Shown here piece after piece: positions 1,653 to 35,442 of a stretch of 64,000 nucleotides of DNA (positions are counted from its first letter, which is position 1; each line of letters begins with the position of its first letter). Location of the stretch: positions 69,752 to 133,751 of the forward strand of contig JBBQZW010000002.1 of the NCBI GenBank assembly GCA_038207395.1, written 5' to 3'. Both the position numbers and the translations under genes were made by a program. The notes below the pieces were generated by a model. The model ran no database searches. It saw only the letters and a program-made list of their open reading frames with translations, and was not told the origin of the DNA. The stretch comes from Minisyncoccia bacterium (lineage in GTDB: Bacteria; Patescibacteriota; Minisyncoccia; Phycocordibacterales; Phycocordibacteraceae).

Positions 1653-1729
1653 GGTGAAGTAATTATTCGTAGTTTCTTAAGTATACGTAACACCTCTATA
1701 AAGAATGGGTGAAGACGCTGGAATCTTTC

Positions 1730-2134
1730 TTATACAAAAAGGAGTATGTTGAAAATCGTCAAAGTTAGTATGGCCGTGATAGTCATTGCCATTCCAACAA
1801 CTCTCCATGGTCCGGTCTTCAAAAATCCGAAACCAATAGCGTGAGCAAACCTGCCAAGTATAAAAAGTACCGCCGTAATGAGTAGGATCGATTGATTCCC
1901 GCCTTGAATCTCATACAGGCCGAGTAGGATTAAGAAGATCGGCGTATATTCACTAAAATTAGAGTGCGCGCGGACCGCTCGTAGGAAGGTCTCGTTTTCA
2001 TTCATTCCTACCGAAGGTCCAATACCTTTTCGTCTCATGGTTATTACCCGTAACGTCAACCCGATAAAAAGTATTGCCAGTAATGAAGCTGAGAGGGTGG
2101 TGATTGGAAGTATCATGTATATATCGTACCTCAT
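1730..2134 (-). CDS. MAPEG family membrane protein
   Basis: About 130 aa with 3-4 TM helices. Conserved RAHxNFxEYxPIFL motif of the MAPEG/YecN family. The real start may be the internal Met at about 2116. Confidence 0.55.
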   Translation of the reverse strand: MRYDIYMILPITTLSASLLAILFIGLTLRVITMRRKGIGPSVGMNENETFLRAVRAHSNFSEYTPIFLILLGLYEIQGGNQSILLITAVLFILGRFAHAIGFGFLKTGPWRVVGMAMTITAILTLTIFNILLFV

Positions 2135-2174
2135 AAAAATACCGTTGGGAGAGCAGGACGATGTTGGACCCTTA

Positions 2175-2546
2175 CTAGATTTTATGTCGACACACCTGCA
2201 CTCCAGCTAATGTAGCGGCTTTATTTAAAGTTAAGATATATGGCTTCCAAGTCTCTTTATCTTGATAGTAAAATTCCATATCAGTAATACCAGCTTCCAG
2301 TATCTGTGATTTAACGAGTTGTATAAGCTCTTGAGTTTCATTTTCAAGGTAATAATCATAATCAGGAATAAAGTCATCTCCTGAGATAAGTCCATATTTT
2401 CCTGAAAGAATATAGAAAAGGGTATCGTTCTCTTTCGCTTTAGATTTTGTAATCTTTATGTGTTCACCTAGGTAGCGCTCGTGAGCTAGTAATAGCTCCG
2501 GGTCAGCGTCCTTATGCTTACTGCATATAGTAATGAATACTTTCAT
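2175..2546 (-). CDS. hypothetical protein (accessory islet)
   Basis: 123 aa ORF, divergent from the 2666 gene. No recognisable family. Confidence 0.4.
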   Translation of the reverse strand: MKVFITICSKHKDADPELLLAHERYLGEHIKITKSKAKENDTLFYILSGKYGLISGDDFIPDYDYYLENETQELIQLVKSQILEAGITDMEFYYQDKETWKPYILTLNKAATLAGVQVCRHKI

Positions 2547-2665
2547 GTTTAAATTTTACCAAATATTGCTGACAGACTGGACGCACCTCACGTTGGAACC
2601 TTTATCAAACATGTGATAGGTTTTGTCTAGACTACCGACAACTTGAACATATTAGGGAGATTGTT

Positions 2666-2950
2666 ATGCCCGACAACTCTTTGTCGCAAGAGCGTATTGA
2701 TTGGATTCTATCAGAAGTCAGGCGAATTGGATCAACGTACAGAAAACCAGATGGTAGCGATCCAAGTCAGTGGAATCACAAGGCACAGCGCAGGCGCTTT
2801 GGCGGTGCATTTCCAAGTGATCTTGGGGCCTCAAAACGAGATCAAACAATTACTCGCGATATGTATCAAATGGTTAAGCTTGGGTATCTTGATCGTGTAA
2901 CCACAACTTACTTACCTGGTTTTGTGATAGCCCAAAGAAAGCAACGTTGA
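2666..2950 (+). CDS. hypothetical small protein (accessory islet)
   Basis: 94 aa ORF followed by a clean rho-independent terminator. Confidence 0.4.
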   Translation: MPDNSLSQERIDWILSEVRRIGSTYRKPDGSDPSQWNHKAQRRRFGGAFPSDLGASKRDQTITRDMYQMVKLGYLDRVTTTYLPGFVIAQRKQR

Positions 2951-2954
2951 TTCT

Positions 2955-2998
2955 CGCCCAACAGGTCGCCTGACTCTGTTGGGCGATTCTGTTTTATT
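2955..2998 (+). terminator. rho-independent terminator
   Basis: CGCCCAACAG-(11 nt)-CTGTTGGGCG hairpin followed by ATTCTGTTTTATT. Confidence 0.65.
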
Positions 2999-3033
2999 GC
3001 TGGGGTATGGGACGATGTTAGAACTTTTTATAC

Positions 3034-3061
3034 TTGACAAGTATGTGCTATATAGTGTAAT
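3034..3061 (+). promoter_or_regulatory. candidate sigma70-like promoter for the 3101 gene
   Basis: TTGACA-16 bp-TGTAAT upstream of the GAGGAG RBS and the ATG at 3101. Confidence 0.3.
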
Positions 3062-3100
3062 GTTTACTTGGCTTTAACCTGAACATTGAGGAGTCCATCT

Positions 3101-3403
3101 ATGCCTGGCTCGCCCAGCAACAACGTGCTTTTCGCCGAGTGCGCCAATCCCGGCATGCCCGAACTTACCCTTCCAGGTCTGGTCGTGGTCGCCAGCGGCG
3201 TCATGATCGACGAGAAGCCCGACACCTACGATGCCGCTCGGGAATATCTGTTCCAGGACGACTGTCTAGTCGCGATGATCAACCGCGGTCGTTCGCCCAT
3301 CGGCGTTCTCGTCGAGAACAGCAACACTTTCGAAAGCGTGAGCCACGAAGGATTCGAGGCCATGTTCATCGTCGAACGTTTTCTCGCCGACCAGGCTCGC
3401 TAA
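3101..3403 (+). CDS. hypothetical protein, GC-rich (likely horizontally acquired)
   Basis: ATG at 3101 preceded by GAGGAG. The ORF is about 60% GC against a local background of about 45%. The overlapping Arg-rich frame is the usual high-GC off-frame artefact. Own promoter and terminator. Confidence 0.45.
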   Translation: MPGSPSNNVLFAECANPGMPELTLPGLVVVASGVMIDEKPDTYDAAREYLFQDDCLVAMINRGRSPIGVLVENSNTFESVSHEGFEAMFIVERFLADQAR

Positions 3404-3426
3404 CCGCCTTTCAACATTCCTATGGA

Positions 3427-3450
3427 AACCGTTGGGGGCGGTTTTCTTTT
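3427..3450 (+). terminator. rho-independent terminator
   Basis: AACCG-TTGGGGG-CGGTT hairpin followed by TTCTTTT. Confidence 0.6.
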
Positions 3451-3479
3451 GCATACTATAGTTAGCTGGCGTACTGGGA
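3450..3479 (+). repeat. direct repeat, copy 1 (TGCATACTATAGTTAGCTGGC plus diverged extension)
   Basis: A 21 bp perfect match, about 30 bp with 3 mismatches, to 3976-4005. Sits immediately 3' of a terminator. Confidence 0.6.
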
Positions 3480-3502
3480 CTATATTGGAACCATGCTTGC
3501 TA

Positions 3503-3530
3503 TTGACATTTCCATATAAATAGGTAATAT
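3503..3530 (+). promoter_or_regulatory. candidate promoter for the 3573 gene
   Basis: TTGACA-16 bp-TAATAT, 40 bp upstream of the GGAGA RBS. Confidence 0.35.
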
Positions 3531-3572
3531 AGTATGTGATACGATCTTTTCACCTAGATTTGGAGACGTTCA

Positions 3573-3938
3573 ATGAATAGCGAAATCCAGATGTGCGTGG
3601 AAGAGCTCAAAAAGGTTTATGGAGACGATGGTGTCACTTCTTTGGGGTGCCACCATACCAAGCACTTCTTTTGGAGGCTTGGCTGTGTCTGCAAGACTTT
3701 CGATGACTTCTTCTACGTCCTGACAAACGTTAAGAACAAGCATAGGAGCAATCGGCTCATGGTGTTTGTTCGCGGCGCGATTGCTCAGGCAGAAACACTC
3801 GAGCAAGTAAGAGCCATTTGGCCTTTCATGCCGACTTCCTGGAAAGAAGAGAAGCGCATTCTCCTTCGGAAAGGAGCAGACGCTTCGACTTCTCAAGAGG
3901 AGCTTTACACTCTCCTCTCAGACTTTGAAGTCATCTAA
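3573..3938 (+). CDS. hypothetical protein with Cys/His cluster (accessory islet)
   Basis: 121 aa with RBS GGAGA. N-terminal C..C/HH/C.C cluster (MCVEEL...GCHHTKH...GCVC). The antisense ORF 3570-3896 looks like low-complexity junk. Confidence 0.4.
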   Translation: MNSEIQMCVEELKKVYGDDGVTSLGCHHTKHFFWRLGCVCKTFDDFFYVLTNVKNKHRSNRLMVFVRGAIAQAETLEQVRAIWPFMPTSWKEEKRILLRKGADASTSQEELYTLLSDFEVI

Positions 3939-3945
3939 TTTGCAA

Positions 3946-3972
3946 CCCCAGGCAATTCGGCCTGGGGTTTTA
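3946..3972 (+). terminator. rho-independent terminator
   Basis: CCCCAGGC-AATTCG-GCCTGGGG hairpin followed by TTTT. Confidence 0.65.
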
Positions 3973-3975
3973 CAA

Positions 3976-4005
3976 TGCATACTATAGTTAGCTGGCAGAC
4001 TAGGA
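3976..4005 (+). repeat. direct repeat, copy 2
   Basis: Matches 3450-3479. Also placed right after a terminator, 36 bp upstream of yebC. Confidence 0.6.
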
Positions 4006-4041
4006 ATCGAAGCCTCATCTCGCGTTTGATATAGTGAGTCT

Positions 4042-4608
4042 ATGTCAGGACATAATAAATGGTCACAGATTCAGCGGCAAAAAGGAGTTACGGATGCGGC
4101 AAAAAGCCGGACATTCGCACGGTTCTCGCGACTTATTACTCTCGAATCAAAGAAATCCGCAGGAAATCTTACTTCACCCGCGCTTAGTACGGCAATAAGC
4201 CGTGCAAAGGCGGTAAATATGCCAAAGGATAGTATTGACCGGGCTGTTGCAAAAGGAATAAGTAAGGATGCGGGAGAACTTGATCAGGTTAATTATGAAT
4301 TCTATGGGCCAGCGGGTGTAGCCATAATCATTTCAGCGCTTACAGACAACCGAAACCGCACGACTCAGGAAATAAAACACCTCATTACAAAAAATGGATT
4401 TGAGCTTGGTACTCCAGGTAGTGCAGCGTGGGCATTCACTAAATTTGCTGATGGGAGTTTTTCTCCAAACGAACCACTGATGGAGGTCACAGGAACAGAC
4501 GAAGAAAAGCTTGGGCAATTACTTACACTTTTTGAAGAACAGGAAGACGTCCAAGACATTTGGACAAACGCTGCTGGATTTTCTTCAGTGCGTGAAGAAA
4601 GTAACTGA
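4042..4608 (+). CDS. yebC: YebC/PmpR family DNA-binding regulatory protein (short form)
   Basis: N-terminus MSGHNKWSQIQRQKG is the YebC signature. Followed by ruvC as in the conserved yebC-ruvC arrangement. Confidence 0.8.
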   Translation: MSGHNKWSQIQRQKGVTDAAKSRTFARFSRLITLESKKSAGNLTSPALSTAISRAKAVNMPKDSIDRAVAKGISKDAGELDQVNYEFYGPAGVAIIISALTDNRNRTTQEIKHLITKNGFELGTPGSAAWAFTKFADGSFSPNEPLMEVTGTDEEKLGQLLTLFEEQEDVQDIWTNAAGFSSVREESN

Positions 4609-4610
4609 GT

Positions 4611-5090
4611 ATGAGAGTACTAGGTATTGACCCTGGGTATGACCGCTTAGGACTTGCAGTTCTTGAAGGTGACCCAAGTCGCCCCACCCTTATATGGAGT
4701 GATTGTTTTTTACCTCCGAAAGGGTTGCGGGAAATGCGTTTGGCAGAAGTATATAGCGCAATTACTTCAGCAATTCTTCAGCACAAACCAGACAAACTAT
4801 CTTTGGAAACGCTCTTTTTCAGCACTAACAAAAAGACTGCTTTGGCAGTAGCGGAATCACGCGGTGCAATTCTTGCTGCCGCTGGAGCTCAGGGTATTTT
4901 CGTGTCTGAATACAGTCCCGCTCAGGTAAAACTAGCGGTTACGGGCTACGGTTCATCAGATAAGCATGCTATCGCACAGATGATTCCCCATCTCGTAACT
5001 CTTTCTGTTCGTAAACGTCTGGATGACGAGCTTGATGCTATTGCAGTAGCCATAGCAGGGCTCTCAGACAGGAATCAACCGATACGGTAA
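4611..5090 (+). CDS. ruvC: crossover junction endodeoxyribonuclease RuvC
   Basis: MRVLGIDPGYDRLGLAV... RuvC N-terminal catalytic motif. About 160 aa. Confidence 0.85.
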   Translation: MRVLGIDPGYDRLGLAVLEGDPSRPTLIWSDCFLPPKGLREMRLAEVYSAITSAILQHKPDKLSLETLFFSTNKKTALAVAESRGAILAAAGAQGIFVSEYSPAQVKLAVTGYGSSDKHAIAQMIPHLVTLSVRKRLDDELDAIAVAIAGLSDRNQPIR

Positions 5091-5195
5091 TCCACAGAAA
5101 ACTAGCTGGGTACTTGCAAAGAATTTGAATTTTGCTCAAATAGATAAGCTTCCCTGTAGCACTGTGGAAATTACAAATGGTAACCGAGAATCCGT

Positions 5196-5366
5196 ATGGA
5201 TATGCATGATGACGATGAACTAGAAGGAGGAGTGCTTCCATTAGGCGGAGGCTCTCTTCTTGACGACGAAGATCCTGAGGTTGGATTAGTGCCTGATGAT
5301 GAAGAAGATGAGGACCCTCTTTTAAATGGCTTCAGTGCTGTTGAAGAGGATGAGACTGGATTCTAA
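5196..5366 (+). CDS. small highly acidic peptide (56 aa), hypothetical
   Basis: Uninterrupted ORF MDMHDDDELEGGVLPLGGGSLLDDEDPEVGLVPDDEEDEDPLLNGFSAVEEDETGF. Below the ORF-track cutoff. Followed by a perfect palindrome. Confidence 0.25.
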   Translation: MDMHDDDELEGGVLPLGGGSLLDDEDPEVGLVPDDEEDEDPLLNGFSAVEEDETGF

Positions 5367-5384
5367 ATTCTCTTGAATGACGTA

Positions 5385-5416
5385 GCATAAACGACCCTTC
5401 AAAGGGTCGTTTATGC
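5385..5416. terminator. perfect 15 bp palindromic hairpin (terminator or regulatory site)
   Basis: GCATAAACGACCCTT-CA-AAGGGTCGTTTATGC. No U-tract on either side, so it may be a binding site rather than an intrinsic terminator. Confidence 0.4.
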
Positions 5417-5429
5417 TATCCTTCCTATA

Positions 5430-7616
5430 ATGTCGCGTAAGTCTCGAAAAAAAACAAAAGAGGGTTCTGAGTCTTTTTTTCATCGACTATTTCACGAGCC
5501 AAACATTTATTTACGCGCCACGTACGTGCTTTCAGGTCTCGTCTTTCTATTTATAGGCGCTAGTGTTTTGTGGGTTGCTTTTACTCCCATCCCCGCACTC
5601 AACTCATTTGATTCGCGAAAAGTGGCAGACTCTACAAAAATTTATGACCGCACCGGAACCACAATTCTTTTTGATCTAAACCACAATATGAAGCGGCAGA
5701 TTGTACCGCTCGACCAAATTTCTCCCAATCTTCAGCATGCAACGATCGTTATCGAAGATGCTCAGTTCTACAAGCATGGTGGTATAAGTTTTACCGGCAT
5801 CGCCCGTTCACTTATCACAGACATTGTACGCCTTTCCTATGCACAAGGTGGTTCTACCCTTACTCAACAGGTGGTAAAAAATACCATTCTCACCGGAAAA
5901 AAGAGTGTGACTCGAAAACTTCAGGAATGGATTCTTGCTATTCGTCTTGAGCAAAAATATTCAAAGACTCAGATTCTTGAGTTTTACTTTAACGTTACCC
6001 CTTATGGGGGAACTATTTATGGTGCGCAAGCGGCAAGTCGTTCGTTCTTCGCAAAGGATGCAAAAGATCTTGATATCGCAGAAGCAGCATATCTTGCAGC
6101 AATCCCTCAACTCCCCACGTATTACTCTCCGTATGGAAATAATCGTGCTCAGCTTGATGCACGTAAAAATATGGTTCTCGATCGAATGCTTCAGTATGAA
6201 TACATCACAAAAGATGAGTATGATGCTGCTCGAAAAGAAGTTGTCGTCTTCAGTCGTCAACAAACAAACTCAATCATCGCTCCGCATTTTGTCTTCTACC
6301 TCGAACAACAACTTGAAGCAAAATATGGTCCAGATGTTGCCACACAAGGTCTAACTGTTATTTCAACCATAGACGTTGATCTTCAAAAACAAGCTGACAC
6401 CTTAGTAAACAAGTACGCCATAGCAAACTCTAAGCGCTATAACGCAAGTAACGCTTCCCTTGTCGCTATTGATCCTAAGACTGGTCAGATTCTCTCTATG
6501 GTTGGGTCACGCGACTATTTCGATACTCAAATCGACGGTAACTACAACGCAGCCCTTGCACTTCGCCAACCAGGATCTTCTTTTAAGCCTTTTGTGTACG
6601 CAGCAGCACTTCAGAAAGGATATACTCCCGATACCGTAATCTTCGATCTTCCTACTCAGTTTTCTACAACATGTTCGGTGAGCGATAATCTTAACGGTAC
6701 CCCTCCTTGCTACTCTCCTGGAAACTTTGACAACAAGTTCCGTGGTCCAATGACCTTCACAACTGCATTAGCGCAGTCAATTAATGTTCCTGCAGTAAAG
6801 ACACTCTATCTTGCTGGTATCTCAAATGTGCTTACGCTGGCAAAAAATATGGGCCTTACCACACTTGGCCAACCAAAAGACTATGGTCTCTCTCTAGCAC
6901 TTGGAGCTGCTGAAGTTCGCCTCTTAGACATAACAAGTGCGTACACTGCGTTTGCAAACGAAGGTGTCCTAAACGCTCCGACAGGTATTTTAAAAGTAAC
7001 TGATGCAAATGGTACGGTTGTAGATGAGTATAAGAGCGCGTCTCGCCAAGTTATTGATCCTCAGATCGCTCGTGAAATATCAGCAATGCTCTCAAGTAAC
7101 GAGGCACGTTTCCCTGAATACCCAGCGAATAATCCATTCCACTTCCCTGGATATGATGTTGCTGCGAAGACCGGTACCACAAACGAATCTCGCGATGCGT
7201 GGACTATTGGCTACACTCCAACAATTGCTATTGGTGTCTGGGCTGGAAATAACGACAATACTCCGATGGTAAAGGAGATTGCTGGATATATTGTTGCTCC
7301 TATGTGGCATGAGGTAATGCAGTACGGAATCACTAAATACCCTCAAGCATTCTTTACGGCTCCTGACCCAACTCCTGACTCAGTCCCTGGTGCGTTACGA
7401 GGACTTTATAGCGACGGAGTTTCAGCTCATGACATTTTGTACTGGGTAAACAAAGATAATCCTCTTGGGGGAGGAAACTCTAGGGGTGATGGTCAATTCC
7501 CGTATTGGGAATACCCTATCAGTGCAGGGTATGGGCTAAACTCTTCTACAACACCCCCTACTGCTACAAGTACTGATCCAGCTATACCTACGCCAGAGCT
7601 GGTTCCAAACCCTTAG
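5430..7616 (+). CDS. class A penicillin-binding protein (PBP1A-type transglycosylase/transpeptidase)
   Basis: N-terminal TM helix. GT51-like region (EDAQFY.HGG, GGSTLTQQ). Transpeptidase motifs SSFKPF (SxxK) and KTGTT. Confidence 0.9.
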   Translation: MSRKSRKKTKEGSESFFHRLFHEPNIYLRATYVLSGLVFLFIGASVLWVAFTPIPALNSFDSRKVADSTKIYDRTGTTILFDLNHNMKRQIVPLDQISPNLQHATIVIEDAQFYKHGGISFTGIARSLITDIVRLSYAQGGSTLTQQVVKNTILTGKKSVTRKLQEWILAIRLEQKYSKTQILEFYFNVTPYGGTIYGAQAASRSFFAKDAKDLDIAEAAYLAAIPQLPTYYSPYGNNRAQLDARKNMVLDRMLQYEYITKDEYDAARKEVVVFSRQQTNSIIAPHFVFYLEQQLEAKYGPDVATQGLTVISTIDVDLQKQADTLVNKYAIANSKRYNASNASLVAIDPKTGQILSMVGSRDYFDTQIDGNYNAALALRQPGSSFKPFVYAAALQKGYTPDTVIFDLPTQFSTTCSVSDNLNGTPPCYSPGNFDNKFRGPMTFTTALAQSINVPAVKTLYLAGISNVLTLAKNMGLTTLGQPKDYGLSLALGAAEVRLLDITSAYTAFANEGVLNAPTGILKVTDANGTVVDEYKSASRQVIDPQIAREISAMLSSNEARFPEYPANNPFHFPGYDVAAKTGTTNESRDAWTIGYTPTIAIGVWAGNNDNTPMVKEIAGYIVAPMWHEVMQYGITKYPQAFFTAPDPTPDSVPGALRGLYSDGVSAHDILYWVNKDNPLGGGNSRGDGQFPYWEYPISAGYGLNSSTTPPTATSTDPAIPTPELVPNP

Positions 7617-7867
7617 CGAATTGTAGTGATTGAAATACCGTTCTTTGAACACTCGTCTATAAGACGGGTGTTGTGTATATGAAGCGCTGATTTTACTACG
7701 GGAGGAACAGTAACAGTAACAGTTCCATCTTTAAAGAGTATTTGGTTTGCACGAATAGGTACTGAAAGTGTTTTTGAAATAATACCTGCAATAATGTGCC
7801 TATCAGTAGATTCTTTAAGTCCCGGTATGGGGAGTCGAGCAATAAGATCTCTAATGCTCTTTTCCAT
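7613..7867 (-). CDS. DciA-like (DUF721) small protein
   Basis: Directly downstream of dnaN. KDGTVTVTVPPVVKSALHIHNTRLIDECSK resembles the DUF721/DciA motif (dG.L.v.v.s..wa.eL...). Confidence 0.45.
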   Translation of the reverse strand: MEKSIRDLIARLPIPGLKESTDRHIIAGIISKTLSVPIRANQILFKDGTVTVTVPPVVKSALHIHNTRLIDECSKNGISITTIR

Positions 7868-7873
7868 AGCGTA

Positions 7874-8974
7874 TTACTGATTCATTGGCATCACCAGGTA
7901 AAGAAGGGTTGTGTCCCCCACTCCCCGAATAACAAGAGGACGCCCAATACCTGCTGAAGAAATACTCACTTGTTCTGTAGTAATAAGTGGGAGTGGTGCT
8001 TGCATATAGCGATGATTGAAGGACAACTCCACTGATTCACCTGTAATAGACGCCGTAATTGATTCATTCGTTTCACCGATATCGGTGTTTCGTGCAGAAA
8101 AATCGAGTTTCTTTTCTTCCAAATTAAAACCTATACGTATCTTTTGGAAAGAATCAGAAAACACAGATGTACGTTTTAAAACTGCCTCAAAGTCCTTACG
8201 GAGAAGTAACGCTTCAGTGGTGAATGATTTTGGAATAATCTGCGCGTAATCAGGGTACGCAACAGCCACAAGACGCGTTGTTACAATACCGTCCTTCCAT
8301 GAGAAGGCGCATTGATGATCATCAATAAGAACTTCTACCTCTTCATCGGGGATTGTTTGAACAATATCAATAGCATTCTTTGCAGGAATAAGGATTGAAA
8401 ACGGAGGTACCGTACCAGCAATTGAAATACGCTTCTCAGCAAGCCGAAAAGAATCTGTTGCAACCGCTGTAATAATTCCTCCTTCCGCTGAGAGCATTAC
8501 ACTTCCAAGCTCAGGACGAACCGTTGAAGGTGAAGCGAAGTTGGCAACGGTAAGGATAAGTGATTTTAGAAGCGCTCCTGGAAGCTTAAATTTAGCTGTA
8601 GGAGCATCAGGAAACGGGAGTGTGGGGAAATCCTCGTAGGGAAGGGTTTTAAGCGTACTCTTGCCCCCAGGAGAGCTTATAACGACAATGTCTCCGGTGT
8701 GTTCGAGGGTGATTGTACCGGTGTTAGAAAAAGAGTTTGTTATTTCTCGAAGCGTTGAGGACGGTAGTGCAACCACTCCGGTTTCTTTAATAGTGCCATG
8801 TACTTTAAAATCAATTCCTGTCTCAAGATTGGTTGCACGTAACTTAATACCATCATCCCCTGCAACGATTGCAATACCTGCAAGTACGGGAAGTGTGGCT
8901 GATCTTCGCTCAGCAAAACGAGAAACACGCGTAACCGCTTCGCTGAATTCTTTTTTTTCTAAAACTATGATCAT
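7874..8974 (-). CDS. dnaN: DNA polymerase III beta sliding clamp
   Basis: 366 aa with a typical DnaN N-terminus (MIIVLEKKEFSEAV...LPVLAGIAIVAG) and three-domain length. Lies downstream of dnaA. Confidence 0.9.
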   Translation of the reverse strand: MIIVLEKKEFSEAVTRVSRFAERRSATLPVLAGIAIVAGDDGIKLRATNLETGIDFKVHGTIKETGVVALPSSTLREITNSFSNTGTITLEHTGDIVVISSPGGKSTLKTLPYEDFPTLPFPDAPTAKFKLPGALLKSLILTVANFASPSTVRPELGSVMLSAEGGIITAVATDSFRLAEKRISIAGTVPPFSILIPAKNAIDIVQTIPDEEVEVLIDDHQCAFSWKDGIVTTRLVAVAYPDYAQIIPKSFTTEALLLRKDFEAVLKRTSVFSDSFQKIRIGFNLEEKKLDFSARNTDIGETNESITASITGESVELSFNHRYMQAPLPLITTEQVSISSAGIGRPLVIRGVGDTTLLYLVMPMNQ

Positions 8975-9217
8975 ACTCTTATTATTAGGGGTGTTGATAC
9001 TGGGGAAAGAGCGATATCTCTAGTATATACGGTCAAATTAGGAAGTCCCAATATCTGAAAACATGAAGATTTCCTAAAGATAGCCTGTGGGTAAGATGAG
9101 GGGTTGAAATGGAGGTGGGGAAAACCGTACGGTTTTCCCCACCTTTTCCCAATCTTTATCCCTCCGCTACTCCCACCCTTTCCCCACACTATCCACAGAG
9201 TTATCCTCAACTACTCT
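8975..9217. promoter_or_regulatory. candidate oriC / DnaA-box cluster (dnaA-dnaN intergenic)
   Basis: DnaA-box-like 9-mers TGTGGGTAA (9086-9094), TTATCCCTC (9156-9164), cTATCCACA (9189-9197) and TTATCCTCA (9201-9209). Perfect palindrome GGGGAAAACCG-TA-CGGTTTTCCCC at 9117-9140. AT-rich stretch at 9024-9075. Confidence 0.4.
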
Positions 9218-10597
9218 TTAAACTAAGAGACCACGAATTTCCTGAATCTCTTTTGAAAGTTCCGGATCATCAACGACTTCACGTTTAACTTTTTCACATG
9301 AGTGAATTACGGTGGTGTGATCACGTCCTCCAAGCTTGTTCCCGATAGTTGGATACGAAACACTAAAGTCTTCCCGGAGAATATACATAATTACCTGGCG
9401 AGGGCGTACTACTTCCCTTCTTCGAGTCTTTTCGTAAATACTGTCTTCTTCAATACCGTAATACTCTGCAACTTTAGAAACAACATGCTTAACGGAGAAG
9501 TTTTTTGTTGGGCGTGATACCGAGCGAAGAAGTTGGCGCACTTCTGCAAGGTCAGGAGACATTCCTTTTACTTGGGTGTGGCACACAATGCTATTAAGCA
9601 CCCCTTCAAGTTCACGGATTGAACCCGCAACTGAAGTGGCAATATGTTCAGTGGCGTCGTCAGCAAGCGTAACTCCGTTACTTGCAAGTTTCTTACGTAC
9701 AATAGCAATCCGGGATTCTGTGTCTGGCTCAGTAATATCAACGGTCATACCGCTTGCAAGGCGCCCACGAAGACGGTCAGCAATGTCGGGAATTGATATA
9801 GGGGCTCGGTCAGAGGAGAAAAGAATCTGACGGTTGTTGTCGTACAAAGAATTAAAAAGATGGAAGAGTTCCTCCTGCATTTTCTCCTTCTTCGAAAGGA
9901 ATTGAATATCATCCATGATCAAAAGATCATACTGACGGTATTTTTCCTTAAAACGATTAGCTGTTCCTGATTGAAGTGAGTCAGTATAGTCCGTACCAAA
10001 TTTCTCTGATGTTAAGTAAAAGACTTTCCGGTTAGGATATTTCTTCTTATATTCGTTCCCTATCGCCTGAATAAGGTGTGTTTTTCCACGACCAGTATCA
10101 CCATATATAAAAAGAGGGTTATACGTGATTCCGGGGCGATTTAGAGCGGCCTGGGCTGCTGTGTAGGCGAGTTCATTAAAGGCACCGACTACAAATGAAT
10201 CAAAGGTATAGCGCGGATTAAGGTTATCGCTCTTATTTATATAAAAATCATCAAGCGGAAGCTCCGGCGCAGGTGCTGAAGCATGAGAACGCTTCACTTC
10301 GCGTGGCTTACGTGCAAGGTCTTTTACGATATGGTACTCAATATTCCGATATTCATATGAAACATCTCGCAATATCTTAAGAATAAGAGAATTAAACTTC
10401 TTTATGTACCAATCTTTAAAGAAAAGGCTTGGAACACCAATCATCACAATTCCGTCCTCAATGCGGGTTATAGAGCTTTCACGGAACCACGTATTGAAGT
10501 TTGCTGAAGAGATCGAAAGTTCAACCTGTGAAAGTACGTACTCCCACAACTCATGAGGATCTGAACGATTAACGGTTTGGGTGGCTGCAGTACTCAT
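9218..10597 (-). CDS. dnaA: chromosomal replication initiator DnaA
   Basis: AAA+ Walker A GDTGRGKTHL, Walker B LLIMDDIQF, C-terminal DnaA-box binding domain. 459 aa. Confidence 0.95.
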   Translation of the reverse strand: MSTAATQTVNRSDPHELWEYVLSQVELSISSANFNTWFRESSITRIEDGIVMIGVPSLFFKDWYIKKFNSLILKILRDVSYEYRNIEYHIVKDLARKPREVKRSHASAPAPELPLDDFYINKSDNLNPRYTFDSFVVGAFNELAYTAAQAALNRPGITYNPLFIYGDTGRGKTHLIQAIGNEYKKKYPNRKVFYLTSEKFGTDYTDSLQSGTANRFKEKYRQYDLLIMDDIQFLSKKEKMQEELFHLFNSLYDNNRQILFSSDRAPISIPDIADRLRGRLASGMTVDITEPDTESRIAIVRKKLASNGVTLADDATEHIATSVAGSIRELEGVLNSIVCHTQVKGMSPDLAEVRQLLRSVSRPTKNFSVKHVVSKVAEYYGIEEDSIYEKTRRREVVRPRQVIMYILREDFSVSYPTIGNKLGGRDHTTVIHSCEKVKREVVDDPELSKEIQEIRGLLV

Positions 10598-33522: not shown

Positions 33523-34041
33523 TTACGCACCACGCTGACTGATCAAATATTTCTTTGGGTTCTCACACATATCAGTGAATGCGTGAGCGGCTTCCTTAAG
33601 TTTTGACGAAGATGATTTCCCGAAAGAAATAACTTCAACCTGACAGCCCATGTTCATATCTAAATATTCAATGAGTGGGACAAAGTCTCCATCCCCTGTT
33701 GCAAGTACGACGGTATCAAGTTTTGGTGCGAGTTTCACTGCATCAATAGCAAGACCAACGTCCCAGTCTGCTTTCTTCGCGCCATCTGAGAAAACTTGGA
33801 GACCTTTCACTTTTGTTTCTATACCAATTTTAGTAAGTGCATCAAAGAAGGCGGTCTCATCACCACTTTCAGTGGAAATAACGTAGGCGATAGCGCGCAC
33901 GAGCGTGCGGTCACCAAGTGCTTCTTCAAGAACTTTCGCAAAATTTACGCGAGTCTTATAAAGATGTTTCGCACTGTGATATAGATTTTGCGTGTCAATG
34001 AATACGCCGACACGTTGAGCTGGATGTTTAATAACTGCCAT
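33523..34041 (-). CDS. NYN (LabA-like) domain protein
   Basis: VGVFIDTQNLYHS ... VLATGDGDFVPLI are NYN/PIN-like catalytic motifs. Start taken as the internal Met (MAVIKHPAQRVGVFID). Confidence 0.6.
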   Translation of the reverse strand: MAVIKHPAQRVGVFIDTQNLYHSAKHLYKTRVNFAKVLEEALGDRTLVRAIAYVISTESGDETAFFDALTKIGIETKVKGLQVFSDGAKKADWDVGLAIDAVKLAPKLDTVVLATGDGDFVPLIEYLDMNMGCQVEVISFGKSSSSKLKEAAHAFTDMCENPKKYLISQRGA

Positions 34042-34129
34042 ATAAAAATAGACTAAAGTTTTATTAAAATAAGGAATGCACTGCCCTGCACTCCATACTA
34101 GCACTTACAAATACGTGTTGAATCAAATG

Positions 34130-34160: not shown

Positions 34161-34427
34161 TTACTTCTTAAGGCCCAGTTTCTTCACGACTGCGCTGTAC
34201 TGACGCTTGTTGCTCTTTTCGAGGTAACGAAGGTGAGCGCGACGATCAGCAACCATCTGAAGAAGACCGCGACGTGAGTGAAAATCTTTCTGATTTTTCT
34301 TCAAGTGACGGGTAAGCTCTTCGATTTTACGGCTAAGAATAGCGATCTGAACCGAAGCTGAGCCGGTGTCTAGATCGTGCATCGCGGTGTTTTTAATTAC
34401 CGCTGTTTTAACTCGTTTTGTAAGCAT
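34161..34427 (-). CDS. rpsO: 30S ribosomal protein S15
   Basis: ...GSASVQIAILSRKIEELTRHLKKNQKDFHSRRGLLQMVADRRAHLRYL is the S15 consensus. 88 aa from the Met at 34427. Confidence 0.85.
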   Translation of the reverse strand: MLTKRVKTAVIKNTAMHDLDTGSASVQIAILSRKIEELTRHLKKNQKDFHSRRGLLQMVADRRAHLRYLEKSNKRQYSAVVKKLGLKK

Positions 34428-34534
34428 TGGCCTTAGATTACCACACCTTGCTAAATTGCGCAAGTGTTCCCTAGTTCGCAGGTCATCTCTACGAAAGCAA
34501 ATATTGTACGAAGTGAGGTGCTACACTATTTGTA

Positions 34535-35442
34535 TGAATGCTGAGCATATAAAGCGTGAATTCCTTGAATATACCGAAATTGAACGTGGTAGAGCCGTGA
34601 AAACCATCCAGAACTACGAACATTACCTCACGCGTTTCTTTACTCACATGAATATTGTCTCAGTGAGCGATATTACTGAGGAAAAAGTACGAGAATTCCG
34701 TCTATGGCTTAACCGCCAGCCAGGAACAGGGCCCGATACCCTTAAACGACGCACCCAGAACTACTATTTAATTGCTTTGCGCTCATTTCTTAAGTTTTTA
34801 CGTAAGCGCGGAATTGACGGGCTTTCACCTGAAAAAATTGAGCTAGCAAAAGTGCCAGAACGTCATCTTGATCTTATATCTTCAATAGAACTAGATCGTT
34901 TGCTTTCAGCGGCTGACGGAACAGGTGAGCGCGGACTTCGTGATCGCGCAATACTTGAACTCCTTTTTTCCACCGGCCTTCGCGTTTCTGAGCTTTGTTC
35001 CCTTGATACTGATCTCGATCTTTCACGCGACAGCTTTTCAATACGAGGAAAAGGTGAAAAGGTTCGCGTTGTTTTCTTCTCAGATGTCGCCAAAGATGCC
35101 GTACGTACGTACCTTAAGTCGCGCAAAGATATGGAACAAGCTCTTTTTGTGAGCGTACCGAGAAGTAGAAATACGAAAGCGTCCCCTTCCCGACTTACGC
35201 CCCGATCAATTGAACTACTTATAAAAACATATGCTGCAAAAGCGGGTATTACAAAAAAAGTTACTCCTCACGTTATGCGACACTCATTTGCGACTGACTT
35301 GTTAAATAATGGCGCAGATATTAGGTCTGTGCAGCAGCTATTGGGTCACGCCTCTATTACTACTACCCAAATTTATACTCACGTTACTGATGCGCACCTG
35401 GCCCAAGTACATAAACAATTTCATTCGCGCAAGAGATCGTAA
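34535..35442 (+). CDS. tyrosine recombinase XerC/XerD family
   Basis: C-terminal HVMRHSFATDLLNNGADIRSVQQLLGHASITTTQIYTHV (R..H..R..Y catalytic tetrad). N-terminal SAM-like domain. Start at the ATG at 34535. Confidence 0.8.

Follow-up and report, generated by a model that had tools for sequence, protein, structure and literature searches.

A probable decaying array of tRNA-targeted, single-gene integrative cassettes upstream of yebC in a Minisyncoccia bacterium

The 64,000-nucleotide stretch analysed here (the window; positions 69,752 to 133,751 of the forward strand of contig JBBQZW010000002.1, Minisyncoccia bacterium assembly GCA_038207395.1) carries a set of small genes separated by a repeated sequence unit between a MAPEG gene and yebC. 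We interpret positions 2144–4015 as four, possibly five, integrative cassettes of one gene each, arranged in a decaying tandem row. On this reading an att-type unit forms the left boundary of every cassette, and the row ends just before yebC at 25 nt that remain of the 3′ end of a tRNA-Gln gene. The general model that we favor is one of tRNA-targeted accretion driven by a large serine recombinase (LSR), and we place the probability of this reading at roughly 0.68.

The initial annotation of the islet at 2175–4040 had pointed to a 30-bp direct repeat at 3450–3479 and 3976–4005 and had suggested that a sequence recurring at cassette boundaries could reflect site-specific insertion or cassette exchange. 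The two repeat strings read exactly as quoted there, and the four open reading frames (ORFs), terminators, promoters and GC anomaly described with them were all recovered in place. The 20-mer GCATACTATAGTTAGCTGGC occurs exactly twice in the 64 kb (3451–3470 and 3977–3996), with none expected from 100 shuffles, and the two copies align across 40 nt with 83% identity (family D1 of the repeat finder). A second repeat family, GGACGATGTTGGAC-like, was found by the same program at 2156, 3010 and 3477, and both families are portions of a single longer unit of about 35 nt, ttGCTGGcNGTcTGGGACGATGTTGGAACcTTT. The region from MAPEG to yebC contains five such units, all on the plus strand and spaced at 425–530 bp, and the rest of the 64 kb contains none; one small gene occupies each interval. 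The proposal of insertion or exchange is thus borne out, the repeat belonging to the left side of an att-type unit that bounds every cassette; both of the copies first noted are real, but there are five units, and the repeat forms the left portion of two of them only.

Rows of the same kind are found in many other genomes. A scan of metagenome contigs with GGGACGATGTTGGAACYTTT (20 nt, comprising 19 fixed bases and one Y) yielded at least 120 contigs; the unit and ORF statistics given below cover all of the collected loci, about 128 in number and approximately 0.7 Mb in extent, and the array numbers are therefore lower bounds (individual loci are identified by L numbers). There are at least 317 units, and among the 73 loci with two or more the orientation is mixed in only two. 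The units have a median spacing of 558 bp (interquartile range 428–735 bp), exactly one ORF lies in 136 of 173 intervals, and the median ORF is 139 aa in length. Relative to the unit, 111 ORFs read in the opposite and 52 in the same direction; the opposite-strand ORFs have their stop codon 0–9 nt from a unit, and in same-orientation cassettes the unit ends 9–11 nt upstream of a −35 box. The cargo is hyperdiverse, with 1078 ORFs forming 899 clusters, and its recognisable members include zeta toxin, RhuM/Fic, Bro-N, GIY-YIG, PhnB-like, NUDIX and GNAT proteins and domains of unknown function (DUFs). The right-hand portion of the unit, its constant arm, is kept at 1.7–1.9 bits per position over hundreds of units; the flanks are unconserved, and no conservation was found beyond the 35 nt of the unit.

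Individual cassettes recur in different surroundings. The 100-aa cassette of the window (3034–3403) is present in three loci with different neighbours, the DNA homology extending from the unit to the T-run of the terminator, and the 94-aa cassette is present in at least five arrays, also with different neighbours; the longest rows containing homologues of the 94-aa gene have 12 units in 5.6 kb (L008) and 12 units in 6.5 kb (L009). The suggestion that the gene at 3101, noted for a GC content of about 60%, had been acquired horizontally and recently is supported by this distribution of the 100-aa cassette over three genomes and by its homology limits at unit and terminator. The gene has 59% GC overall, with values of up to 0.61 at 3101–3300 against 0.447 for the window, and is GC-rich (0.54–0.59) in three hosts whose own GC content is 0.44–0.45. 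At codon positions 1, 2 and 3 the GC contents are 0.64, 0.40 and 0.75 in the 100-aa gene and 0.51, 0.36 and 0.59 in the 121-aa gene, compared with 0.57, 0.43 and 0.36 in host genes, and we conclude that both frames are genuinely coding and that their codon usage is foreign.

The arrays are anchored at tRNA genes. An Rfam search of L008 revealed a tRNA-Gln gene just past the last unit, on the opposite strand and with its 3′ end toward the array, and tRNA-Gln accounts for 21 of the 38 tRNAs in array loci; all 21 lie to the right of the units and on the opposite strand, usually one cassette away. Read in the orientation of the unit, the 3′ end of tRNA-Gln is GCTGGGAGACTAGGGATCGAACC and the unit is GCTGGCAGTCTGGGA-CGATG-TTGGAACC. 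The first part of the unit is a block of 7–15 nt in which the discriminator and acceptor 3′ strand of the target tRNA are reproduced; next comes the constant arm GGGA-CGATG-TTGGAACC, and this arm carries the T-loop motif of tRNAs, TT(C/G)GAACC, displaced outward by 5 bp; GAACC stands at index 24–28 in the unit and at 19–23 in the tRNA, for tRNA-Gln, tRNA-Lys, tRNA-Leu and tRNA-Ser alike. The left half of the unit matches the local tRNA, whether Lys (L033), Leu (L064) or Ser (L075, L077 and L019), such that the first 7–10 nt vary and the arm GGGACGATGTTGGAAC remains unchanged. Gln-type starts (GCTG) are the most frequent, at 154 of 295 units, and 19 have the Ser-type start GCGG. There are also short-form units that are plain tRNA-Gln 3′ fragments, among them unit E of the window, one site in L068 and the one that follows the L004 cassette.

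Some further tRNA sequences in these loci deserve mention. The tRNA-Gln(UUG) genes beside the LSR element in L068 (8–81) and in L016 (1834–1907) have the T loop ATCGTAC in place of TTCGAAT, resembling the ACGAT of the unit, and they may be hybrids made by recombination. In L109 a 36-nt tRNA-Gln 3′ fragment lies about 70 nt past the 3′ end (1344) of the tRNA-Gln at 1273–1344, and in L012 an anticodon-arm fragment lies to the left of the intact tRNA-Gln at 7773–7844; these partial copies suggest further integration events, possibly of other element types.

A further explanation is that the unit is a DNA or RNA element that serves regulation and not recombination, for instance by binding a transcription factor or by directing RNA processing. 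The closeness of the unit to the −35 box in same-orientation cassettes would be in keeping with such a role, and a shared regulator-binding site was among the first proposals for the repeat. However, two thirds of the cassette genes lie on the opposite strand with their stop codon against the unit, and the orientation of the unit is constant whatever the direction of the gene, an independence that tells against a regulator-binding site and for which a promoter or UP element was likewise rejected; moreover, the left half varies with the neighbouring tRNA, the arrays end at tRNA 3′ ends, and there is no Rfam match. At the gathering threshold, tRNAs were the only Rfam matches in the window; the units gave no match in L008 and L009 with a limit of E≤1, nor in 3940–4060 with a limit of E≤10. 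We therefore give the regulatory explanation hardly any weight. Inspection by eye also led us to reject a CRISPR repeat, a sigma54 box and the 5′ half of a tRNA as identities of the unit.

The array loci contain six LSR genes, each encoding about 500 aa with Resolvase, Recombinase and Zn_ribbon domains (Pfam), often with a rolling-circle-type Rep gene upstream, and no other recombinase family was found in these loci. Each of the six genes has its end within a unit or the 3′ end of a tRNA: in L051 a long-form unit, in L054 and L086 short forms, in L068 a tRNA-Gln-like fragment beside tRNA-Gln, in L033 tRNA-Lys, and in L077 tRNA-Ser. The L033 element has a Lys-type unit at its left end, followed by 5 kb of genes and then by Rep and LSR genes reading into tRNA-Lys, and a 5-kb ‘viral’ contig identified in an LSR alignment search (L134) has the same layout at tRNA-Gln; L134 and L135 add two LSR genes to the six. 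A search of viral contigs with a single LSR protein found nothing, and it was the alignment-based search that found relatives. In the half-sites of serine-integrase attB sites, the motif for the zinc-ribbon domain (ZD) lies 5 bp closer to the centre than it does in attP (Rutherford et al., PMC3783163). By the 5-bp shift of the motif between unit and tRNA, the arm of the unit is thus of the attP type and that of the tRNA of the attB type. We consider it somewhat more likely than not that the LSR is the enzyme that acts on the units. Two subtypes of unit, GCTGGCGCTATGGGACGATGTTGGAAC and GCTGCGGGTCGTAGACGATATTAGAAC, alternate in the L051 array (3903–9911), and the second, GCTGCGGGTCGTAGACGATATTAGAAC, matches the site within the LSR gene of that locus.

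The presence of one gene per cassette, the single orientation of the sites and a cargo of GNAT, NUDIX, PhnB-like, zeta toxin and DUF proteins also recall integrons, and the window does encode an Xer-like tyrosine recombinase (Phage_integrase and SAM-like N-terminal domains; 34366–35442, plus strand), which lies about 30 kb from the array beside an NYN-domain gene (33523–34104, minus strand) and is probably the housekeeping Xer. Under an integron-like or Xer-type explanation, this host XerC/D homologue or an IntI-like tyrosine recombinase would act on the units as attC- or dif-like sites. An attC site is an imperfect inverted repeat (R''-L''...L'-R') that folds as a hairpin. Pairing of units with their 150-nt flanks gives −21.1 and −21.3 kcal/mol, no better than the −21.9 kcal/mol for random parts of the same locus, and an attC hairpin was rejected on this control. 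Dyad symmetry and dif-like arms are missing from the consensus (a dif-like Xer site has 28 bp with two 11-bp arms), with only ATGTT resembling a XerD arm by eye. Furthermore, a jackhmmer search of the array loci (approximately 0.7 Mb), seeded with the Xer-like protein of the window, found no tyrosine recombinase, the 25 most frequent Pfam families of the flanking regions (each in at least 3 of 134 flanking ORFs) do not include Phage_integrase, and the cassettes have promoters and terminators of their own. We regard this explanation as very unlikely.

The model of accretion by LSRs can be set out as follows. A tRNA-targeting LSR would recombine a unit, which would be attP-type and could also be attL-type, with a tRNA gene, whose 3′ end would be the attB-type partner. 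The inserted DNA would supply a tRNA-like end, leaving the tRNA intact, and because the incoming element restores this end the tRNA-proximal site would stay usable. Repeated insertions would then build a row of same-oriented units, one for each insertion, with older cassettes pushed progressively away from the tRNA; and any unit, when paired with the tRNA site, could release a circle that again carries a unit. That the small cassettes lacking an LSR gene have moved in trans, as opposed to being leftovers of larger elements, is a component of the model to which we would assign slightly less than even odds.

Several observations weigh against the model. LSR genes are present in only six of the approximately 128 loci, and neither an LSR gene nor a tRNA-Gln gene was found in the 64-kb window, so that the local array is not tied to any enzyme. 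Canonical LSR sites have two recognisable, imperfectly symmetric half-sites around a central dinucleotide. Here the unit lacks dyad symmetry, and conservation is absent both to the left of ttGCTGG and in the left flanks of the tRNA-Gln 3′ ends. To our knowledge, canonical LSRs do not recombine attL or attR without a directionality factor, and the model assumes that the restored tRNA end is still attB-like and is reused without one. The Ser-type units of L077 and L019 lie on the 5′ side of tRNA-Ser, unlike the simple geometry described above, and the acceptor block of units in a single array, such as that of L008, does not match the resident tRNA-Gln. Finally, an all-against-all megablast comparison of the loci revealed no near-identical pair of arrays differing by one cassette, and thus no direct instance of insertion or excision; its sole indel, of 336 bp, is unrelated to the units. 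This segment (L021 3631–3966, compared with L037 8260–8277) is inserted between AAACTCGAAC-type direct repeats in contigs that are otherwise 98.6% identical, and may be a small mobile insertion.

The main rival to accretion of small cassettes is that the units are scars. Full-size LSR-Rep elements of 5–7 kb would have integrated repeatedly at the tRNA, each decaying to one gene and the left att site, and the small cassettes would never have been independently mobile. Full-size elements do use the same type of site and fill slots in arrays (L033, L054, L068 and L134), the right ends of the small cassettes lack a conserved arm, and the units of the window are degenerate, scoring 18–24 bits with nhmmer compared with 35–42 bits for those in L008 and L009. 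Yet intervals so consistently contain exactly one ORF, and their spacing is so tight, that independent decay to a single gene would have to have happened many times, which is unparsimonious; the same cassettes recur across arrays with their limits at unit and terminator; and the arm has been maintained as its flanks have not. The one-gene regularity, the recurrence and the conservation of the arm argue against the scar explanation, and we judge it unlikely.

The features of the window are listed in Table 1. Unit E and the 3′ end of the tRNA-Gln in L012 agree at 22 of 25 positions (score 18, compared with a null mean of 5.7, standard deviation 1.2 and maximum 13), and by this comparison unit E appears to be the reverse complement of the last 25 nt or so of a tRNA-Gln gene and the putative terminal attB/attR-type site of the array. 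Sites orthologous to it precede yebC in two relatives. In L003, ruvB and a few other genes are followed by four different cassettes, the left extension with a short-form site, and yebC, and in L105 the order is ruvB, a unit, one cassette, a degenerate site and yebC; comparison of related genomes, one of the checks first proposed for this locus, thus shows different cassettes occupying the same yebC-proximal position. Because its units are degenerate, the tRNA is represented by a remnant, no LSR or tRNA-Gln gene accompanies them, and relatives have other contents at the same site, the locus is best read as an old insertion hotspot with turnover of cassettes, and the array is probably inactive in this genome.

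Table 1. Coordinates of the units, cassettes and flanking features in the window
Feature	Position	Strand	Basis or comment
Possible further unit, strongly degenerate (GGGTGAAGACGCTGGAATCTTTC)	1707–1729	+	By eye; ends at MAPEG stop codon; weak
Unit A, long form, degenerate (GTTGGGAGAGCAGGACGATGTTGGACC)	2144–2177	+	nhmmer E=0.0017, 18 bits; 16-mer match with 2 mismatches
Cassette 1 gene, 123 aa, DUF6884; stop abuts unit A	2175–2546	−	Pfam PF21818
Unit B, Gln-type left half, extra insertion before TTGGAACC (TTGCTGACAGACTGGACGCACCTCACGTTGGAACCTTT)	2566–2603	+	nhmmer weak, E=0.68 for right part
Cassette 2 gene, 94 aa	2666–2950	+	Terminator 2964–2988; conserved family
Unit C, long form (TTGCTGGGGTATGGGACGATGTTAGAACTTTTT)	2997–3029	+	nhmmer E=1.7e-5; left limit of homology among 100-aa cassettes
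Cassette 3: promoter (TTGACA 3034–3039), conserved 5′ untranslated region, 100-aa gene 3101–3403	3034–3403	+	Terminator 3424–3446
Repeat copy 1: left extension TGCATACTATAGTTA (3450–3464) and unit D, long form (GCTGGCGTACTGGGACTATATTGGAACC, 3465–3495)	3450–3495	+	nhmmer E=4.4e-4
Cassette 4: promoter 3503–3530, 121-aa gene 3573–3938, terminator 3946–3971	3503–3975	+	
Repeat copy 2: left extension (3976–3990) and unit E, short form (GCTGGCAGACTAGGAATCGAAGCCT, 3991–4015)	3976–4015	+	
Flank: yebC −10 box TATAGT (4030–4035), 6 nt, ATG; yebC 4042–4608; ruvC 4611–5090	4030–5090	+	Arrangement common to L003 and L105

The candidate unit at 1707–1729 went undetected by nhmmer, and its geometry fits that of opposite-strand cassettes elsewhere, with the stop codon 0–9 nt away; if it is real, MAPEG itself (1730–2134, minus strand) would be a fifth cassette, for which the case is weak. 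Unit B occupies the position of the canonical unit in the 94-aa cassettes of L008, L009 and L011, and the outward displacement of its TTGGAACC relative to the tRNA is 10 bp and not 5 bp, reflecting either decay or a distinct spacing variant. The 94-aa, 100-aa and 121-aa genes all have a promoter and a terminator of their own. A terminator scan found the hairpins that follow cassettes 2 and 3, and the third hairpin, CCCCAGGCAATTCGGCCTGGGGTTTT, was matched solely via the terminator portions of small RNA models; the promoter of cassette 4 has the form TTGACA-16-TAATAT, a match at 10 of 12 positions. At the right flank, the yebC ATG is preceded at exactly 6 nt by TATAGT or TATACT in the window (4030–4044), L003 (5285–5305) and L105 (4808–4825), with no Shine-Dalgarno sequence, and from this arrangement yebC appears to be leaderless.

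The 15-nt left extension that precedes units D and E is seen, as (C)ATACTAWAGTTA, in about 7 of 270 units, in unrelated genomes and always after the T-run of a terminator. An exact search with GCATACTATAGTTAGCTGGC gave only two matches in species-representative genomes and no match in viral and metagenome contigs. A copy in L002 (Ca. Wolfebacteria JAKEFG010000014, 4155–4174) lacks the right arm of the unit and lies at the start of a minus-strand ORF for a membrane protein; this copy and copy 1 of the window both carry aaCATGCTTGCT 19 nt downstream of GCATACTATAGTTAGCTGGC. A minus-strand ATG within the repeat was considered as a gene start and rejected, the ORFs in three copies being 62, 20 and 7 aa long and not conserved. 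The single viral match to the unit (L132) falls within an ORF; long ORFs overlap on the two strands of this contig, as in high-GC sequence, and the match is probably due to chance.

The initial annotation saw no recognisable domain in any of the four cassette proteins, noted a Cys/His cluster in the 121-aa protein and likened the islet to defence or toxin-immunity loci. The 123-aa protein is in fact a member of DUF6884 (PF21818; 32.1 bits against a cut-off of 30), and a DUF6884 cassette homologue in L055 is likewise bounded by units (cluster 76). The 94-aa protein belongs to a well-conserved family with 13 homologues of 64–100% identity, and its AF2 model (pLDDT 79.6) is winged-helix-like, with only weak matches to winged-helix structures in the PDB (E>0.3). 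Two homologues of the 100-aa protein were found, P0001 (79%) and P0002 (65%), both in other arrays. The 121-aa protein has one 64%-identical homologue, one identical fragment of 59 residues and seven distant homologues; its model (pLDDT 86.9) has seven helices in an all-alpha, TPR-like repeat with no specific match, and no PDB fold search, with either the 94-aa or the 121-aa model, returned a match below E=0.3. The Cys and His residues of the 121-aa protein vary among its homologues, so a zinc-binding motif is not upheld, and we found no evidence of a defence or toxin-immunity role for the four genes. What endures of the earlier reading is the idea of insertion at cassette boundaries and of recent acquisition of the GC-rich gene, and what lacks support is the regulator site, the blanket absence of domains, the Cys/His motif and the defence role.

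Annotation of these genes in public records is poor. An identical public contig of 2.9 kb (L001) has the 100-aa and 121-aa genes miscalled as antisense or truncated, with calls at 401–589, 705–878 and 894–1073 that correspond to window positions 3266–3454, 3570–3743 and 3759–3938, and the 121-aa protein is missing from an index of 5.8 billion proteins. Cassettes of foreign composition are evidently under-annotated; here the public calls missed two of the four cassette genes.

In the literature that we searched, nothing relevant was found on the sequence of the unit, on integrons or cassettes in bacteria of the candidate phyla radiation (CPR), or on tRNA-targeting serine recombinases in Patescibacteria, and as far as these searches go the cassette-row system has apparently not been described previously. 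We tentatively propose, at somewhat under even odds, that CPR bacteria of the Paceibacteria type have an integron-like form of gene capture based on an LSR instead of a tyrosine recombinase, in which the zinc ribbon would read the T loop and the acceptor-copy block would set the tRNA; single-gene cassettes with a 35-bp attP-like unit would be captured serially at tRNA 3′ ends, excised as circles and exchanged between genomes, and the rows would constitute a main accessory gene pool. The genomes of CPR bacteria are minimal, and the ways in which these organisms gain genes are poorly understood. If the proposal is true, widespread cassette rows represent a second, independently evolved integron-like solution, the location of much of the strain-specific and unannotated gene content of CPR genomes is explained, and the 35-nt unit provides a handle for searching metagenomes. 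There would also be serine integrases that read the tRNA T loop via the 5-bp rule of attP and attB, with a target seemingly set by the tRNA-copy block, offering a testable case of serine integrase retargeting of relevance to genome-engineering tools.

In architecture, and by analogy only, the rows resemble the staphylococcal cassette chromosome (SCC) elements. In SCCmec, psi-SCC and composite SCC the Ccr large serine recombinases insert at an attB within the 3′ end of rlmH/orfX. A usable site is formed anew with each insertion, and elements with and without a recombinase pile up in tandem between direct repeats, those without one depending on it in trans. The arrays described here likewise have tandem elements, with or without an LSR, at the 3′ end of one conserved gene and with integration-site repeats between them. 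They differ in that the target is a tRNA gene, mostly tRNA-Gln, and not rlmH/orfX; the cassettes are single-gene and approximately 0.3–0.7 kb, with up to 12 or more per row; the hosts are CPR/Paceibacteria; the site mimics the T loop of a tRNA; and the autonomous elements pair an LSR with a rolling-circle-type Rep, not CcrA with CcrB.

The likeness to genomic islands at tRNA genes, which accrete in tandem usually by means of tyrosine integrases, lies in the tRNA 3′-end direct repeats at the borders, the intact tRNA at one end and the occurrence of several elements in a row. An intact tRNA-Gln is at the border in 21 related loci, and the window has the 25-nt remnant (22 of 25 identical) and no tRNA-Gln gene. 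Here, however, the putative recombinase is a serine recombinase, the elements are one gene in size, and the repeat has a 5-bp spacer and is not a plain duplicate of the tRNA end. With the LSRs of phages, such as the Listeria A118/LI integrase (PMC3783163), the system shares a distal ZD-type motif in both partners that is 5 bp closer to the centre in the chromosomal site, the Resolvase, Recombinase and zinc-ribbon domains, and an att site at the end of the integrase gene; it differs in having one recognisable half-site, a tRNA 3′ end with the universal T loop as partner, an acceptor-copy block that varies with the tRNA, and long tandem rows. An LSR with all three domains next to an att site, and the 5-bp half-site shift, are features of related loci only, the LSR not having been found in the window, and two-half-site symmetry is absent.

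The comparison with integrons is closest at the level of organisation: rows of single-gene cassettes, same-oriented sites, a hyperdiverse cargo that includes toxins, acetyltransferases and VOC-type proteins, and cassettes common to several genomes in different orders. The defining components of integrons, IntI and the attC hairpin, were not found in the array loci, nor were the hallmarks of Xer/dif modules such as IMEX and pdif; the sites are conserved by sequence and not by structure, the cassettes have their own promoters and terminators and read in either direction, and the anchor is a tRNA gene, not an attI site with a Pc promoter. By analogy, then, the mechanism would be closest to SCC-type accretion and to the serine integrases of phages, and the architecture closest to that of integrons.

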